A stretch of DNA of 32,000 bases from Crocosphaera subtropica ATCC 51142 (lineage in GTDB: Bacteria; Cyanobacteriota; Cyanobacteriia; Cyanobacteriales; Microcystaceae), in the NCBI RefSeq assembly GCF_000017845.1, contig NC_010547.1:60001-92000 (forward strand). Direction: 5' to 3'. The notes under the pieces are model-generated. The model was not told the origin of the DNA and did not search any database. It saw only the letters and a program-made list of their open reading frames with translations. Positions 10,705 through 31,644 of this stretch are shown here, piece after piece. The position numbers and the translations under genes are program-made. Position 1 is the stretch's first letter. Each line of letters opens with the position of its first letter.

Positions 10705-10740
10705 AAAAAACGCTAGAGATGAGCTTAACACTCATCTCTA
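10705..10740 (-). terminator. Rho-independent terminator of the COG0523-folE transcription unit
   Basis: The 10-bp stem tagagatgag/ctcatctcta is followed on the minus strand by GCGTTTTTT, ~20 nt after the folE stop. Confidence 0.75.
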
Positions 10741-10759
10741 ACAGTGGCCCGCAAATCGA

Positions 10760-11415
10760 TTAACGCAAGCTAGGATTGTGTTGAATCAAACTCATAAACT
10801 CCTGACGGGTTTTAGCATCATTAGCAAATTCCCCTCTAAGCGCACTGGTGGAAGTCCAAGAACCAGGTTTTTGCACCCCTCGCATTACCATACACATATG
10901 ACTTGCCTCTACAACCACGGCCACTCCTTTCGGTTGCAATAATCCTTGAAGTGCATCGGCAATCTGTGCGGTAAGGCGTTCCTGTACCTGTAAACGTCGT
11001 CCGTACATTTCACAAATACGAGCAATTTTTGAGAGTCCAATGACTTTCCCATCGGGAATATAAGCAACATGAGCGCGGCCGAGAATGGGTAAGATATGAT
11101 GTTCACAGGAACTAAATAGGTCAATATCACGAACTAAGACCATTTCATTAGCATTTTCATGAAAAACTGCCCCATTTAGCAATTCGTCTAACGATTGATG
11201 ATAGCCAGAAGTTAAAATTTAAGAGCTTTAACTACTCGTTTTGGTGTATCTTTCAAACCTTCGCGATCGGGATCTTCTCCTAATCCTAACAGTAAAGTCC
11301 TTACCGCTTGGCGCATCTCCTCCTCAGAAACGGGAGGCTGTTGTGTCGTCGTTAATGACGGCAATTTATTATCGATTTTATTAACTGGATTGGGTTCGGA
11401 CTGAGCTAAGGTCAT
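10760..11415 (-). pseudogene. folE: GTP cyclohydrolase I (FolE type IA, Zn-dependent type), interrupted by a 1-nt frameshift in a homopolymer run at 11214-11217
   Basis: The N-terminal ORF ends ...[12 protein letters not shown]. The next frame continues [17 protein letters not shown]...SSCEHHILP...HMCM. One extra T in the TTTT run would restore KALKF-L-TSGY, the expected FolE sequence. Confidence 0.65.
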
Positions 11416-11429
11416 AGTTTTGAGTTAAA

Positions 11430-12389
11430 TTAAAGGGTAACAGAGGTAGCTAAGCAGTTATTTAGCTGTTGGCGGAGTTTATCGGCATCTAAATGACGAC
11501 CGATAAAGACTAGCTGGTTCACAGGGGAATTAGACCAAGGTTCGGACTTGATATCGTTGCGCTGTCCGCACAGTTGGAAAATGTGGCGTAATTGGCTTCC
11601 TGCAAACCAAACAATTCCTTTGGCACGAAAAACCTCTAGGGGAAGTTCTTCGTTTAAAAACTTGTGAAATTTATAGACATCAAAGGGTTTGTCGCTTTGA
11701 AAAGACATGGACATAAAACCCTCTGTTTTGAGGTGATGGGAATGTTGGCGATATTCTTGTTCAACAAAGCTATCTGTGTTAGTTAAACCCACATCCAAGA
11801 TTAAAGGTAACGGGACTTGGGCGTATTGGGTATGGATAATTCTGGGATTCTTTTTAACAGAGGCAATGTAGCTTTCTAATGCGGTTAGTTGTTCGTTATT
11901 TGCTAAATCAGTTTTATTCAATAAGAGAATATCTCCATAGGCGATTTGTTTAAACGCTACCTTGCTATCAAAATGTTCTGGGGTAAAGGTTTCTGCATCA
12001 ATTAAGGTAATCACCGCATCTAAGTGTGTAAAATATCGAAAATCTGAACCAACAAACGTCAAAATAATCGGTAGAGGGTCTGCTACCCCCGTCGTTTCGA
12101 TAATCAAACGATCTACTTTTTCTTTCCTAGCTAAGATTCGTTTTACCGCTTCTACCAAACCGTCATTGATAGTACAGCAAATACAACCATTGCTCAACTC
12201 CACCATGTCATCTTCGTAAGAAACTAAAAGTTGAGCATCGATATTAATATCACCAAACTCGTTAACCAAGACTGCAACTTTTTGATCAAGGTCATTTTGC
12301 AGAATTTGATTGAGTAAGGTGGTTTTTCCACTACCGAGAAAGCCGGTAATGATGGTAACTGGTAATCCTTGCTGGTTAATCTCTGACAT
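11430..12389 (-). CDS. COG0523 (CobW/ZigA/Zng1-like) G3E P-loop GTPase, putative zinc metallochaperone, paralog 1
   Basis: Walker A GFLGSGKTT, metal motif GCICCT and CobW_C-like end FRAKGIVWF...LVFIGRHLD. The short His patch is QHSHH. ATG 12389 is the likely start; the ORF is open to TTG 12404. Confidence 0.9.
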   Translation of the reverse strand: MSEINQQGLPVTIITGFLGSGKTTLLNQILQNDLDQKVAVLVNEFGDINIDAQLLVSYEDDMVELSNGCICCTINDGLVEAVKRILARKEKVDRLIIETTGVADPLPIILTFVGSDFRYFTHLDAVITLIDAETFTPEHFDSKVAFKQIAYGDILLLNKTDLANNEQLTALESYIASVKKNPRIIHTQYAQVPLPLILDVGLTNTDSFVEQEYRQHSHHLKTEGFMSMSFQSDKPFDVYKFHKFLNEELPLEVFRAKGIVWFAGSQLRHIFQLCGQRNDIKSEPWSNSPVNQLVFIGRHLDADKLRQQLNNCLATSVTL

Positions 12390-12432
12390 GACGAAGAGAA
12401 GCAATTGCCTTTACAAAAGTTAATTATACTAT

Positions 12433-12445
12433 AACGATAATCGTT
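12433..12445. promoter_or_regulatory. Degenerate Fur-family palindrome abutting a perfect -10 (minus-strand TATAAT at 12423-12428) upstream of COG0523 paralog 1
   Basis: aacgat-a-atcgtt is a perfect 6-1-6 palindrome with the GATAATC core. It is separated by 4 nt from the minus-strand TATAAT. Confidence 0.45.
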
Positions 12446-12522
12446 CTTAAATTTTTCAGAATTTTAAGTTTCCCATGCTGCCTATTCCTCCTGAAACTGG
12501 AGTAAACTTCAGGGAAAGTATG

Positions 12523-13563
12523 TCAAGGGAGGAAATTAAGTAAACTCAATGGATGGTGAATATCTAGCTTGACTAAGCATTCATTAAGCTGTTGTTTAAT
12601 TAACGACTTATCTAAATTACGCCCGATGAAGACAAGTTCGTTTTTTGGATGGGTTGTCCAATCATCCGCTTGGAGATCGTAGCGAGATCCACTCAATTGA
12701 AAAATATGTCGGGCAGGACTTTCTTGAAACCATAGTATCCCCTTGGCACGAAATATATTATTAGGTAATTGTTCAGATAAAAAATGTTCAAATTTCTCAA
12801 TTTCAAAGGGGCGATCGCTCTCAAAAGAAACAAAGTTAAAGCCATCGGTTTCTAAATGATTATCAAAATTAGATTTATTGCGTCGAAATTCAGAAATTTC
12901 AGCTTGATAGGTATCTGTTTGAGTTAAACCAATATCTAAAATTAATGGTAAAGGAACTCTACCGTATTCACTGGGTAAAATTCTAAATCCTGGTTTAGTA
13001 TCTTCAATAAATGCTTTTAATTCGTTGATTTTGTCTTTAGTTGCTAAGTCAATTTTATTTAAAATAACCATGTCACCGTATCTAATTTGTCTTAAAGCAG
13101 CATCACTATCAAAATGCTTGGCATCAAAAGCGGCTGCATCCACAACGGTAATGACAGCATCAAGGCGAGTTAAAAACTTTAATTCTGTACCAAGAAAAGT
13201 CATAATAATTGGAAACGGATCTGCCAATCCTGTTGTTTCGATCACTAAATAATCGATCTTTTCTTCTCTTTCTAAAACTCGATAGACAGCATTAACTAAA
13301 CCATCATTAATAGTGCAACAAATACAACCATTATCCAATTCGATCATATCTGAATCCACTGATATTAAAAGCTGTTCATCAATATTAATATCTCCAAATT
13401 CATTAACTAATACTGCTATTTTCAAGTTGTCTTTATTCTGTAAAATTTGATTGAGTAAAGTCGTTTTGCCACTACCTAAAAAACCAGTAATGATGGTGAC
13501 TGGCATTCCACTTTTCGGTAAGGATGGTAGAGCATCGGACAGGGTGAAGTTTAGACGAGTCAT
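12523..13563 (-). CDS. COG0523 G3E GTPase, putative zinc metallochaperone, paralog 2
   Basis: GFLGSGKTT, GCICCT and FRAKGILWF. It is about 85% identical by eye to the ORF at 21595-22635. Confidence 0.9.
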   Translation of the reverse strand: MTRLNFTLSDALPSLPKSGMPVTIITGFLGSGKTTLLNQILQNKDNLKIAVLVNEFGDINIDEQLLISVDSDMIELDNGCICCTINDGLVNAVYRVLEREEKIDYLVIETTGLADPFPIIMTFLGTELKFLTRLDAVITVVDAAAFDAKHFDSDAALRQIRYGDMVILNKIDLATKDKINELKAFIEDTKPGFRILPSEYGRVPLPLILDIGLTQTDTYQAEISEFRRNKSNFDNHLETDGFNFVSFESDRPFEIEKFEHFLSEQLPNNIFRAKGILWFQESPARHIFQLSGSRYDLQADDWTTHPKNELVFIGRNLDKSLIKQQLNECLVKLDIHHPLSLLNFLP

Positions 13564-13593
13564 AGTCTTAAGTTAATTCGTTTCGGGATATTT

Positions 13594-30496: not shown

Positions 30497-30508
30497 AGAA
30501 TGATATTT

Positions 30509-30529
30509 TGATAATGATAATCATTATAG
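30509..30529. promoter_or_regulatory. Fur-family/Zur-type operator (two overlapping boxes) between hemB and the CobW-like gene
   Basis: tGATAATGATAATCATTATAg. Positions 30510-30528 match the classical 19-bp Fur-family consensus GATAATGATAATCATTATC at 18 of 19. Confidence 0.75.
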
Positions 30530-30570
30530 CCAAAAATTCAAAGTCTGTTGCAAGGAAAATTTGGAGGATT

Positions 30571-31575
30571 TCAAGGTGCTTTAGGCAACATCAAAGCGAC
30601 TTGTTTGGCAAAATAAGTCAAAATTAAGTCTGCCCCTGCCCGTTTCATACTGGTAAGGGTTTCCAAAATGACTTGCTTTTCATCAATCCAACCTTGCTCG
30701 GCCGCAGCTTTAACCATTGCATATTCACCACTAACGTTATAAGCAGCAACAGGTAAGTTGGTATATTCTTTGATGCGACCAATAATATCTAAATAAGCTA
30801 AAGCTGGTTTAACCATTACGATGTCTGCCCCTTCAGCAATATCTAAAGCCACTTCTTTAATGGCTTCTCGGCTATTAGCAGGGTTCATTTGATAGGTTTG
30901 TTTGTCACCAAATTGAGGGGCAGATTCTAAAGCATCGCGGAAAGGTCCATAATAAGCTGAAGCGTATTTTGCCGAATAAGCAAGGATGCCTACATCAAAA
31001 TAACCAGCATCATCTAAACCTTGACGAATGGCTCCTACTCTACCATCCATCATATCGGAAGGGGCGACTATGTCTGCTCCTGCTTCTGCTTGAGAAATGG
31101 CTTGTTTTACTAATACTTCTACTGTTTCGTCGTTGAGAATTTTGCCATCTTTAACTATGCCATCATGACCGTAGGTAGAAAAGGGATCAAGGGCTACATC
31201 AGTAATGACAGCCATTTCAGGAATTTCTTGTTTAATGGCTTTGATAGTGCGCTGTACTAACCCATCGGGGTTATGACTTTCTGTTCCTGCATTATCTTTC
31301 TTTTCTGTAGGAATGAGAGGAAAAAGTGCAACTGCATTGATCCCTAAATTAGCAGCATCGGCTATTTCTTTGAGCAGTAAATCGAGGGAATAACGATAGA
31401 TTTCCGGCATGGAAGGAATCTCTTCTTGCTGGTTTTCTCCTTCCATGACAAACACCGGATAAATCAGATCGTTAACTGTTAGTTGGGTTTCCCGTACCAT
31501 ACGACGCAAGGATGCAGTGCGACGAAGGCGACGAGGACGATGGAGTAAGGAGAGATGTTCAGTAGTAGAACTCAT
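30571..31575 (-). CDS. hemB: Porphobilinogen synthase (delta-aminolevulinate dehydratase), Asp-rich (Zn-independent, Mg-type) active-site variant
   Basis: [14 protein letters not shown] stands in place of the Cys-rich Zn site DxCxCxY..GHCG. The Schiff-base Lys contexts [13 protein letters not shown] and VMVKPA are present. Confidence 0.92.
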
Positions 31576-31605
31576 AACGTTTAGTGGCGAACTGGTTCAT
31601 CAAAA

Positions 31606-31620
31606 TGATAATCATTATTA
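31606..31620. promoter_or_regulatory. Zur-type operator upstream of hemB
   Basis: TGATAATCATTATTA (one mismatch), 31 nt upstream of the hemB ATG. Confidence 0.7.
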
Positions 31621-31627
31621 TACAACG

Positions 31628-31642
31628 AGAATGATTATTATT
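31628..31642. promoter_or_regulatory. Second (AGAAT-variant) operator upstream of hemB
   Basis: AGAATGATTATTATT, 8 nt after the first box and ending 3 nt before the stop of the upstream PEP-CTERM gene. Confidence 0.55.
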
Positions 31643-31644
31643 AT

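Follow-up and report, generated by a model that had tools for sequence, protein, structure and literature searches.

A 32,000-nucleotide stretch of the linear chromosome of Crocosphaera subtropica ATCC 51142 (NCBI RefSeq assembly GCF_000017845.1, contig NC_010547.1, positions 60,001 to 92,000; hereafter the window, whose own coordinates are used throughout) carries, from about position 10705 to its right-hand end, a gene island in which palindromic 7-1-7 boxes precede genes for COG0523 GTPases, paralogues of zinc enzymes, a FeoB-like permease with a flavoprotein partner, phosphoesterases, and secreted PEP-CTERM proteins. Judging from these boxes and genes, we consider it very probable that the locus is a zinc-starvation island under the control of a Zur (FurB-type) repressor. 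An earlier note on the same DNA had proposed such a low-zinc island, and this proposal gains support from the motif, the gene content, the conservation of both, and the homologues in Synechococcus 7002.

Results

The pattern TGATAATNATTATCA, allowing up to three mismatches, matched the window 29 times, against 3.8 ± 2.1 matches (maximum 11) in dinucleotide-preserving shuffles; two copies, at 13594 and 24115, are perfect, and three further sites deviate by one mismatch. To avoid circularity, a position weight matrix (PWM) was built from 15 published cyanobacterial Zur sites, none of them from the window, namely the zepA upstream sites (S1 File, PMC10957091) and those that Haas 2009 gives for cyanobacteria (Additional file 5). 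At 10 bits or more this independent PWM yielded 20 matches, where a Markov null averaged 1.5 and never exceeded 7, and the operators score 12-23.5 bits with it. All 11 boxes listed in the earlier note were recovered within 2 nt (12435, 13594, 13622, 17736/17742, 19997/20003, 23553/23559, 24115, 26956/26962, 30509/30515, 31600/31606, and 31626), the one at 12435 being weak, and the two that it had called perfect are indeed so. Its placement of the boxes in short gaps upstream of genes was likewise confirmed, as ten out of ten matches with up to two mismatches inside 10705-32000 are intergenic, although gaps make up only ~8.5 % of this region, and as 13-77 nt separate the start codon from the near edge of each box. 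Furthermore, the box sequences are the same as the experimentally defined Anabaena Zur sites (a 7-1-7 palindrome with a dissociation constant of 2.5-7 nM), which, together with the PWM of published sites, upholds the claim that this motif is the Anabaena Zur operator. Sites of the zepA type, ATGATAATCATTATC, occur in many cyanobacteria (PMC10957091).

The boxes group into nine operator regions within the window, five of which hold 21-nt double sites composed of two 7-1-7 motifs with a 6-nt offset; overlapping double Zur sites are known at the Anabaena zepA promoter. The leftmost region, O1 (12435..12449, CGATAATCGTTCTTA), has four mismatches and 14.0 bits and overlaps a promoter-like site at 12450-12423. 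O2 (13594..13636) joins the perfect box at 13594-13608 to a one-mismatch box at 13622-13636; it is common to the divergent cog0523_b and thrS genes, and its boxes overlap the -35 and -10 elements of the best promoter-like match (TTGATA-18-TATTAT, 13593-13622). O3 (17736..17756) is a 21-nt double box common to the divergent tatD-like and queD-like genes, where promoter-like sites are overlapped on both strands. To its right follow O4 (19997..20017, TGAGAATAATAATCATTCTTA), the 21-nt double box O5 (23553..23573), the perfect box O6 upstream of hisI (24115..24129), and O7 (26956..26976), a 21-nt double box common to the flavoprotein operon and the divergent cog0523_d gene, and finally the double box O8 (30509..30529) and O9 (31600..31646), which comprises two double boxes upstream of hemB. 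In the promoter scan, several operators overlap the best promoter-like matches of their units. The 21-mer of O4 recurs identically at O5 and O7 (starting at 19997, 23553, and 26956) in either orientation; because the flanks of the three operators are unrelated, this sharing points to constraint on the site and not to promoter duplication. With the PWM, each 21-mer is also recognised as a pair of overlapping canonical boxes. A further box-like site at 1279 lies inside the open reading frame (ORF) 992-1465, probably by chance.

Some 12 transcription units make up the island, and three intergenic operators (O2, O3, and O7) serve divergent gene pairs. In the co-directional minus-strand string from 26927 to 18290, each sub-unit has an operator, as had been claimed, although one of the four is the leading operator (26956) and only three are internal (24115, 23553, and 19997). 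On the left, a terminator-like hairpin on the minus strand (10711..10743; a 14-bp stem and then a T-run), directly after folE, closes the leftmost transcription unit and marks the island edge; the next gene beyond it is a convergent PolA-like gene. The right boundary formerly drawn at 31644 had to be given up. The Logan contig L097, identical to window positions 27262-32000 over 4,739 nt and reaching 613 nt further, carries another perfect box at the window equivalent of 32576-32590 (~580 nt beyond base 32000), and therefore the island continues past the end of the window. Wherever Logan assemblies of the runs SRR26036487-9 overlap the window, the two sequences agree completely. All ORFs of the island are intact except folE, the GC content of the window is flat at ~0.40 without a foreign signature in its composition, and Rfam and tRNA scans of the window gave no matches.

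COG0523 GTPases and zinc-enzyme paralogues

The gene families named in the earlier note were all confirmed by Pfam, NCBIfam, and profile searches, with the qualifications that folE proved to be a pseudogene and that the QueD-like protein is a divergent relative. Four genes encode COG0523 GTPases, a (11430..12404, minus strand, with the CxCC motif as GCICCT), b (12523..13563, minus), c (21595..22635, minus), and d (27083..28174, plus), and all four proteins match PF02492 and PF07683 and bear GC(I/V)CCT. Copies b and c are recent duplicates, to judge from their 86 % protein identity; Logan short-read assemblies break within both of them. Copy d has a His/Asp-rich insert, HHHDHDHDHHDHHHHDHDHDHHHHDHHSHH, encoded at 27752-27856 by a degenerate short repeat and absent from the other three copies, and it probably corresponds to cce_4848 of Haas subgroup 14. 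In the survey of Haas 2009, the ATCC 51142 genome holds 11 COG0523 genes, cce_4848 is co-localised with 'TrxB' and 'FeoB', and the same two neighbours accompany subgroup 14 in Staphylococcus, C. watsonii, and ATCC 51142. Its table of Zur sites for ATCC 51142 names only cce_1488 and cce_4857. Neither of these two site sequences occurs in the window, and from the locus-tag spacing relative to cce_4848, cce_4857 may lie farther to the right.

The island also holds paralogues of zinc enzymes. The thrS gene (13593..15527, plus) probably has its true start at GTG 13653 or TTG 13680, downstream of the boxes, and encodes a threonyl-tRNA synthetase (ThrRS). Compared with E. coli ThrRS (1QF6), this protein lacks the N1 domain and has an insertion of ~32 aa just before an altered editing motif, DLCAGPH, and the motifs bearing the Zn ligands Cys334/His385/His511 are conserved. 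By these features, it is of the zinc-stress T2 type, which Rubio 2015 recognised by an insertion beside the DxCRGPH editing motif together with retained catalytic Zn ligands. T2 ThrRS stays dimeric and active at low zinc and edits poorly, and the long 'insert a' has been described only for species in which T1 is retained as well (Rubio 2015). The cysS paralogue (20097..21557, minus; PF01406, E = 1e-133) encodes a cysteinyl-tRNA synthetase (CysRS) with the zinc-ligand motifs CG.TVYD, WHIECS, and HGGG.DL.FPHHENE conserved relative to solved CysRS structures, and two CysRS genes are listed for ATCC 51142 in Data set S1 of Rubio 2015. A CysRS scan of genome contigs returned mostly cysS genes with 55-66 % identity and no Zur boxes; a related cluster was found only at L015. 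Furthermore, the island contains a monofunctional hisI paralogue (phosphoribosyl-AMP cyclohydrolase; 23608..24093, minus; PF01502) and a gene for a TatD-like metal-dependent hydrolase (16775..17701, minus; PF01026, E = 1.9e-19) that scores far under every NCBIfam TatD cutoff. Their sequences retain the Cys/His pattern C..CH..C in HisI and the zinc ligands in the TatD-like protein.

A 121-aa protein (17871..18236, plus) is, from profile comparisons, a divergent QueD relative. Taken alone, it reaches only E = 0.0071 and 16.7 bits against PF01242, under the cutoff of 22.4. Its family, however, comprising 35 representative clusters among 1.84 billion proteins, gives a profile that matches the QueD/PTPS structures 2OBA (1.2e-8) and 4NTK (5e-6), and 19 of 21 family members match PF01242 (E <= 0.01). 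Near the right end of the window lies a hemB paralogue (30571..31575, minus; PF00490). HemB proteins were assigned to the Asp-rich, Mg-type, zinc-free class when the Cys-rich DxCxCxYxxxGHCG is replaced by DxALDxYxxxGHDG, and the island protein has the Asp-rich motif and no Cys in it. Its nearest structures are 1W1Z and 1B4K, which we take to be Mg enzymes, ranking above the E. coli Zn enzyme 1B4E. The distinction between HemB1 and HemB2 follows Haas 2009, where it is also stated that the HisI, CysRS, ThrRS, and QueD paralogues retain their Zn sites. By its motif, HemB is clearly a zinc-free replacement, and it is the only island enzyme for which this is clear.

The folE gene, for a FolE1-type GTP cyclohydrolase I (10760..11429, minus), is frameshifted, its N-terminal 67 codons being out of frame with its C-terminal 140 codons, and PF01227 (E = 4.5e-61) covers the C-terminal part only. 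Two-frame tblastn against intact FolE located the loss of one T near 11213-11220, where the T-run reads AAATTTTAAC and intact orthologues imply AAATTTTTAAC. Three independent Logan contigs contain both fragments exactly, whereas no repaired 218-aa FolE exists among 15 billion proteins; folE is for these reasons a real frameshifted pseudogene and not a sequencing error. Intact 218-aa orthologues with 94-96 % identity occur in other Crocosphaera species, and the Zn motifs SSCEHH and HMCM can still be read in the sequence. Programmed frameshifting or transcriptional slippage at the break is unlikely, since the T-run is only 4 nt long and there is no canonical in-frame slippery heptamer. Because folE is broken, another GTP cyclohydrolase must exist in the organism; the evidence from cysS, thrS, and folE indirectly supports the view that the island enzymes are second copies.

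Downstream of thrS, a Uma2-family gene (restriction-endonuclease-like; 15590-16144, plus; PF05685) and a MoaB-like gene (16169-16687, plus; PF00994) are co-directional with it and have no operator of their own, an arrangement also present in the Logan contig L001. Both are probably passengers behind thrS.

The flavoprotein/FeoB-like pair and other modules

The FeoB-like permease (24148..25818, minus) has an N-terminal small GTPase domain and Gate domains and is 100 % identical to the ATCC 51142 protein annotated at NCBI as 'putative ferrous iron transport protein'. It was rejected as a bona fide FeoB, as it falls far under the NCBIfam equivalog cutoffs (TIGR00437, 120.5 bits against 315.65; NF007105, 38.6 against 683), and its G-domain alone matches solved FeoB fragments (~1e-6). 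The start of its gene is overlapped by that of a Pyr_redox_3 flavoprotein (25806..26927, minus; PF13738, E = 3.6e-102) with a C-terminal CCxxxCxC tail, which matches over its full length PDB 3D1C, a structural-genomics protein of unknown function (E = 9e-74). The CCxxxCxC tail is invariant from cyanobacteria to Paenibacillus and Klebsiella, and so is the Cys-rich membrane motif of the permease across those phyla. The flavoprotein gene occurs in 610 plasmid records, 499 of them from Klebsiella. An IncHI1B plasmid of K. pneumoniae carries cysS, the flavoprotein gene, and the FeoB-like gene in this order, with zigA-hisI nearby, and the flavoprotein gene, hisI, and dksA each have an enterobacterial-type Zur box immediately upstream (three matches against 0.04 expected; L094, positions 2610, 5900, and 10673). 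In Paenibacillus, the pair lies between COG0523/S14 and L33 genes, and across phyla it was seen to recur beside COG0523, cysS, hisI, and zinc-free ribosomal protein genes. The literature searched yielded no functional study of the pair. Cyanobacterial Zur boxes precede the pair or its operon in all cyanobacterial genomes sampled, and we tentatively propose, as a possibility that falls somewhat short of an even chance, that it could be a widespread, uncharacterised module for the acquisition or mobilisation of metal in zinc starvation. If true, it would represent a new class of Zur-controlled importer, for zinc or a substitute metal, in which GTP-gated transport is combined with a redox partner.

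Four PEP-CTERM proteins of secreted type are encoded in the island. Three lie wholly in the window, a 327-aa DUF4394-like protein with a PEP-CTERM-like tail (18290-19273, minus), a 232-aa protein (19277-19975, minus), and a 255-aa protein (22709..23476, minus; PF07589, TIGR02595). The fourth is represented only by its C-terminal part, an 87-aa ORF (31645..32000, minus); on L097 it is complete, with 275 aa, a signal peptide, and a PEP-CTERM tail, and the perfect box outside the window lies ~104 nt upstream of its start. None of the four was accepted as ZepA, for which the criteria were an identity of 35 % or more across no less than 75 % of the length, a signal peptide, and PEP-CTERM, as BLASTP and tblastn with All3515 matched only the PEP-CTERM tails.

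A unit of three minus-strand genes spans 28181..30496 and encodes a degenerate G3E/CobW_C protein (29750-30496) with Walker A, a weak CobW_C match, and no CxCC, which is accordingly not a canonical COG0523 member, a metallophosphoesterase (28938-29753), and a related 240-aa protein (28181-28903). T. variabilis plasmid A also has this trio, and Synechococcus 7002 pAQ7 has part of it. A 47-nt stretch just after the TatD-like gene (16734-16780) matches the 3' end of the gene for the 240-aa protein (28180-28226) with 77 % identity, its translation being FKTVYDESKKGSEN before a stop as compared to FKTVYYGEKKGFGN before the stop of the 240-aa gene. It looks like the relic of a former copy (an mpe240-like C-terminus) and hints at rearrangement.

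To the left of the island, the PolA-like gene (8536-10524) encodes a 662-aa family-A DNA polymerase with a 3'-5' exonuclease domain and without a 5' nuclease domain. Farther left, positions 65-7473 hold several metal-related genes without a convincing Zur box; they encode the zinc enzyme MetE (its C-terminal part), a porin of the SLH-OprB type, a NicO-like permease, and proteins with DUF4198 and DUF2267. In C. chwakensis, the OprB porin gene is a neighbour of the island and is preceded by a box and a fragment of a Fur-family gene. The candidate for such a Fur-family gene upstream of the porin in C. subtropica, ORF 992-1465, was rejected, as it is unrelated and has no Pfam match.

Conservation of operators and of the island

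A box occurs at the position orthologous to O7 in eight other genomes. Boxes upstream of the flavoprotein/FeoB-like operon were found in three Crocosphaera species, Moorena, Calothrix, Acaryochloris, and a metagenome-assembled genome (MAG) from ENA, and in Egbenema a box precedes an operon of cysS, WD40, flavoprotein, and FeoB-like genes. The O6-type box upstream of hisI is kept in C. chwakensis, Calothrix, and the ENA MAG, and several of these cyanobacteria, which span several orders, also have boxes upstream of hisI, thrS, cobW, or cobW-folE. The only synteny reported for the 430-kb linear chromosome of ATCC 51142, earlier discussed in terms of energy metabolism, is with Cyanothece CCY0110. 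Likewise, C. chwakensis CCY0110 was the sole genome found with a syntenic island, its boxes lying in the same gaps; its intergenic DNA is ~90-95 % identical, which makes footprinting uninformative, and more distant genomes were used instead. In the cobW/flavoprotein gap, C. chwakensis has a perfect 7-1-7 box where C. subtropica has the 21-mer. Because a perfect box replaces the 21-mer at an orthologous position, one regulator would appear to read both forms, which look interchangeable.

In C. watsonii WH 8501 (L085/L086), the island is broken up by transposases, and a bmtA metallothionein gene adjoins the cobW/flavoprotein pair; in the same strain, a double box with one perfect copy precedes metH, the gene for B12-dependent methionine synthase.

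Counting boxes with up to two mismatches per ~20 kb, the C. subtropica island has ten in eight operator regions, plus the weak O1 and one site beyond the window, the C. chwakensis island has ten in nine regions, and seven other loci have one to seven in one to five regions. The island of C. subtropica is thus among the largest of its kind, and its density is equalled only by that of its sister species. The earlier description of the locus as unusually dense and complete holds in that it is large and dense, but the sister species has the same island, and smaller versions are widespread, often on plasmids. For instance, the smaller island on T. variabilis plasmid A comprises thrS, DUF1636, COG0523, hisI, the phosphoesterase trio, hemB, and znuA/C, and further smaller islands lie on Acaryochloris pREB6, Synechococcus 7002 pAQ7, and Klebsiella plasmids, a Zur-regulated cluster having been described on the Klebsiella virulence plasmid pLVPK (Haas 2009). 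That accessory replicons repeatedly host such islands suggests that low-zinc islands move horizontally.

Discussion

Under sufficient zinc, zinc-loaded Zur dimers would occupy the nine operator regions, which are predicted to overlap promoters or lie just past them, and block the transcription units; a drop in cytoplasmic zinc would release Zur from the DNA and allow the units to be transcribed. The internal operators of the co-directional strings would provide each sub-unit with its own Zur-gated promoter, as in the Anabaena operon all4725-all4721, and the graded operator scores (12-23.5 bits) may stagger derepression. Once expressed, the Mg-type, zinc-free HemB would stand in for a zinc enzyme, and the T2 ThrRS, CysRS, HisI, QueD-like, and TatD-like proteins would supply extra or sturdier zinc-using copies, among which FolE was presumably once included before its gene decayed. 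The four COG0523 GTPases and their degenerate relative would allocate scarce zinc to client proteins, and acquisition might be served by the FeoB-like GTPase-permease with the Cys-tailed flavoprotein and by the four secreted PEP-CTERM proteins.

Zur control is favoured by published work on related genes. In Synechococcus 7002, hemB-II, folE-II, and G0131 are upregulated in a zur mutant and with the chelator N,N,N',N'-tetrakis(2-pyridylmethyl)ethylenediamine (TPEN) (Ludwig 2015), and the enzyme families of the island are the same as those listed as Zur-regulated paralogues by Haas 2009. Several of our observations weigh on the other side. Pfam and profile scans found no Fur-family gene in the window, and the identity of the regulator is deduced from motif and gene content. 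The promoter-like scan of the window gave no overall enrichment (46 found, 50 expected), and O1, with its four mismatches, is weak. Most of the paralogues retain zinc ligands, leaving HemB alone to fit the notion of 'zinc-independent replacement', and we know of no link of Uma2 or MoaB-like genes to zinc. The literature contained no experimental study of Zur or of the zinc response in ATCC 51142 that we could find. Moreover, TGATAATNATTATCA is the classical Bacillus Fur 7-1-7 core, and sequence alone cannot part Zur from Fur.

This identity of consensus raises the question of whether the operators belong to the iron regulator FurA, with a cluster answering iron instead of zinc, as the FeoB-like transporter might also imply. 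Crosstalk between Zur and FurA has been reported in Anabaena, and TPEN induces iron-stress genes, too, in Synechococcus 7002 (Ludwig 2015). However, the gene list is one of zinc (COG0523 and Zn-enzyme paralogues), the window has no siderophore, TonB, Fut, or IsiA genes, and the permease falls far under the FeoB equivalog cutoff, its Klebsiella version being preceded by enterobacterial Zur-type boxes. As Anabaena Zur binds boxes of identical sequence and the Synechococcus 7002 homologues are derepressed specifically in the zur mutant, we regard control by FurA as very unlikely. We find it equally improbable that some or all operators are read by a second Fur-family paralogue associated with the island, with the 21-mer TGAGAATAATAATCATTCTTA as a separate operator type. 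Related islands do have Fur-family genes of their own, four in Acaryochloris pREB6 and a FUR fragment beside the C. chwakensis island, the Klebsiella plasmid cluster has two 'transcriptional repressor' genes, and one identical 21-mer stands at three operators despite differing flanks. Yet no such gene lies in the window, the canonical box in the orthologous gap of C. chwakensis makes the two forms look interchangeable, and the 21-mers score as overlapping canonical boxes, in keeping with the double sites at Anabaena zepA.

A different question is whether the island is a decaying, horizontally acquired, and largely redundant accessory whose size reflects accretion and duplication, and not selection for a coordinated response. 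The genuine folE pseudogene, the recent duplication of COG0523 b and c (86 %), the relic of an mpe240-like C-terminus after tatD, the passenger genes, the plasmid-borne or transposase-broken state of its relatives, and its location on an accessory linear chromosome would all agree with such a history. All other ORFs are intact, though, operator conservation extends from the two Crocosphaera species to other orders, and the uniform GC content (~0.40) bears no foreign signature. We therefore hold this view to be rather unlikely, if clearly less so than the two alternative regulators; it is, moreover, compatible with Zur control and no true alternative to it.

With a Zur-controlled zinc-starvation island as the preferred reading, the linear chromosome of a model marine diazotroph would gain a concrete role, as it would hold in readiness an answer to zinc shortage, a stress that cells in the open ocean can realistically be expected to meet. 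About 12 units under graded operators would form a compact test bed for a staggered response driven by one metal sensor, and C. subtropica is described as genetically amenable in a passage of PMC11065991. The island further offers candidate components of the zinc response, namely the flavoprotein/FeoB-like pair, the degenerate G3E GTPase with its two phosphoesterases, and the four non-ZepA PEP-CTERM exoproteins. The presence of its core module on Klebsiella plasmids of the pLVPK kind (Haas 2009) ties it to the question of how a pathogen withstands nutritional immunity, the withholding of zinc by the host. A specialist would expect such clusters to exist; scale, the site on the linear chromosome, and the uncharacterised modules are what make this one a useful experimental target.

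Comparison with known systems

The Zur (FurB) regulon of Anabaena/Nostoc PCC 7120, including the operon all4725-all4721, was reportedly defined by Napolitano and colleagues in 2012. This operon shares with the island the 7-1-7 operator, a Mg-type hemB, a T2 thrS with 'insert a', COG0523, and a FolE1-type folE, as well as an internal Zur-gated promoter within a co-directional operon. In contrast to its five genes and two promoters, the island comprises some 21 genes with 9-10 operator regions and contains in addition cysS, hisI, the QueD-like and TatD-like genes, the FeoB-like/flavoprotein pair, phosphoesterases, and PEP-CTERM proteins; on the other hand, its folE is broken, and, unlike the Anabaena regulon, the window has no znuABC or TonB receptor.

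The kind of cluster as such is already known (Haas 2009; Ludwig 2015), and the C. subtropica island is a large new example of it. The cluster on Synechococcus 7002 pAQ7 (Ludwig 2015) is also located on an accessory replicon, with canonical boxes in front, and includes hemB-II (77 % identical to the island HemB), folE-II (84 % to the island folE), G0131 (27 % to the island CobW_C protein), and an mpe240-like gene, whereas it is much smaller and without aminoacyl-tRNA synthetase paralogues. Its FAD protein G0132 was rejected as a homologue of the island flavoprotein, as it is not of the Pyr_redox_3 family. Like the COG0523 clusters of Haas 2009, the island unites HisI, CysRS, ThrRS, HemB, QueD, FolE, and COG0523. 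The Klebsiella cluster of the pLVPK type likewise has cysS, flavoprotein, FeoB-like, and hisI genes and also holds zigA, but enterobacterial clusters differ in their Zur motif and carry FolE2 and DksA2, both absent from the island. Zur boxes, thrS, cysS, QueD, COG0523, and other PEP-CTERM proteins are likewise found in the zepA neighbourhoods (Sarasa-Buisan 2024), although the island has no ZepA homologue and matches only in the PEP-CTERM tails. In architecture and scale, the island is like the giant Fur-regulated iron clusters of Synechocystis 6803 (32 kb, 22 genes, 11 boxes) and 6714 (22 kb, 18 genes, 7 boxes), which also have many bidirectional promoters, but those clusters differ from it in metal, regulator, and gene content.

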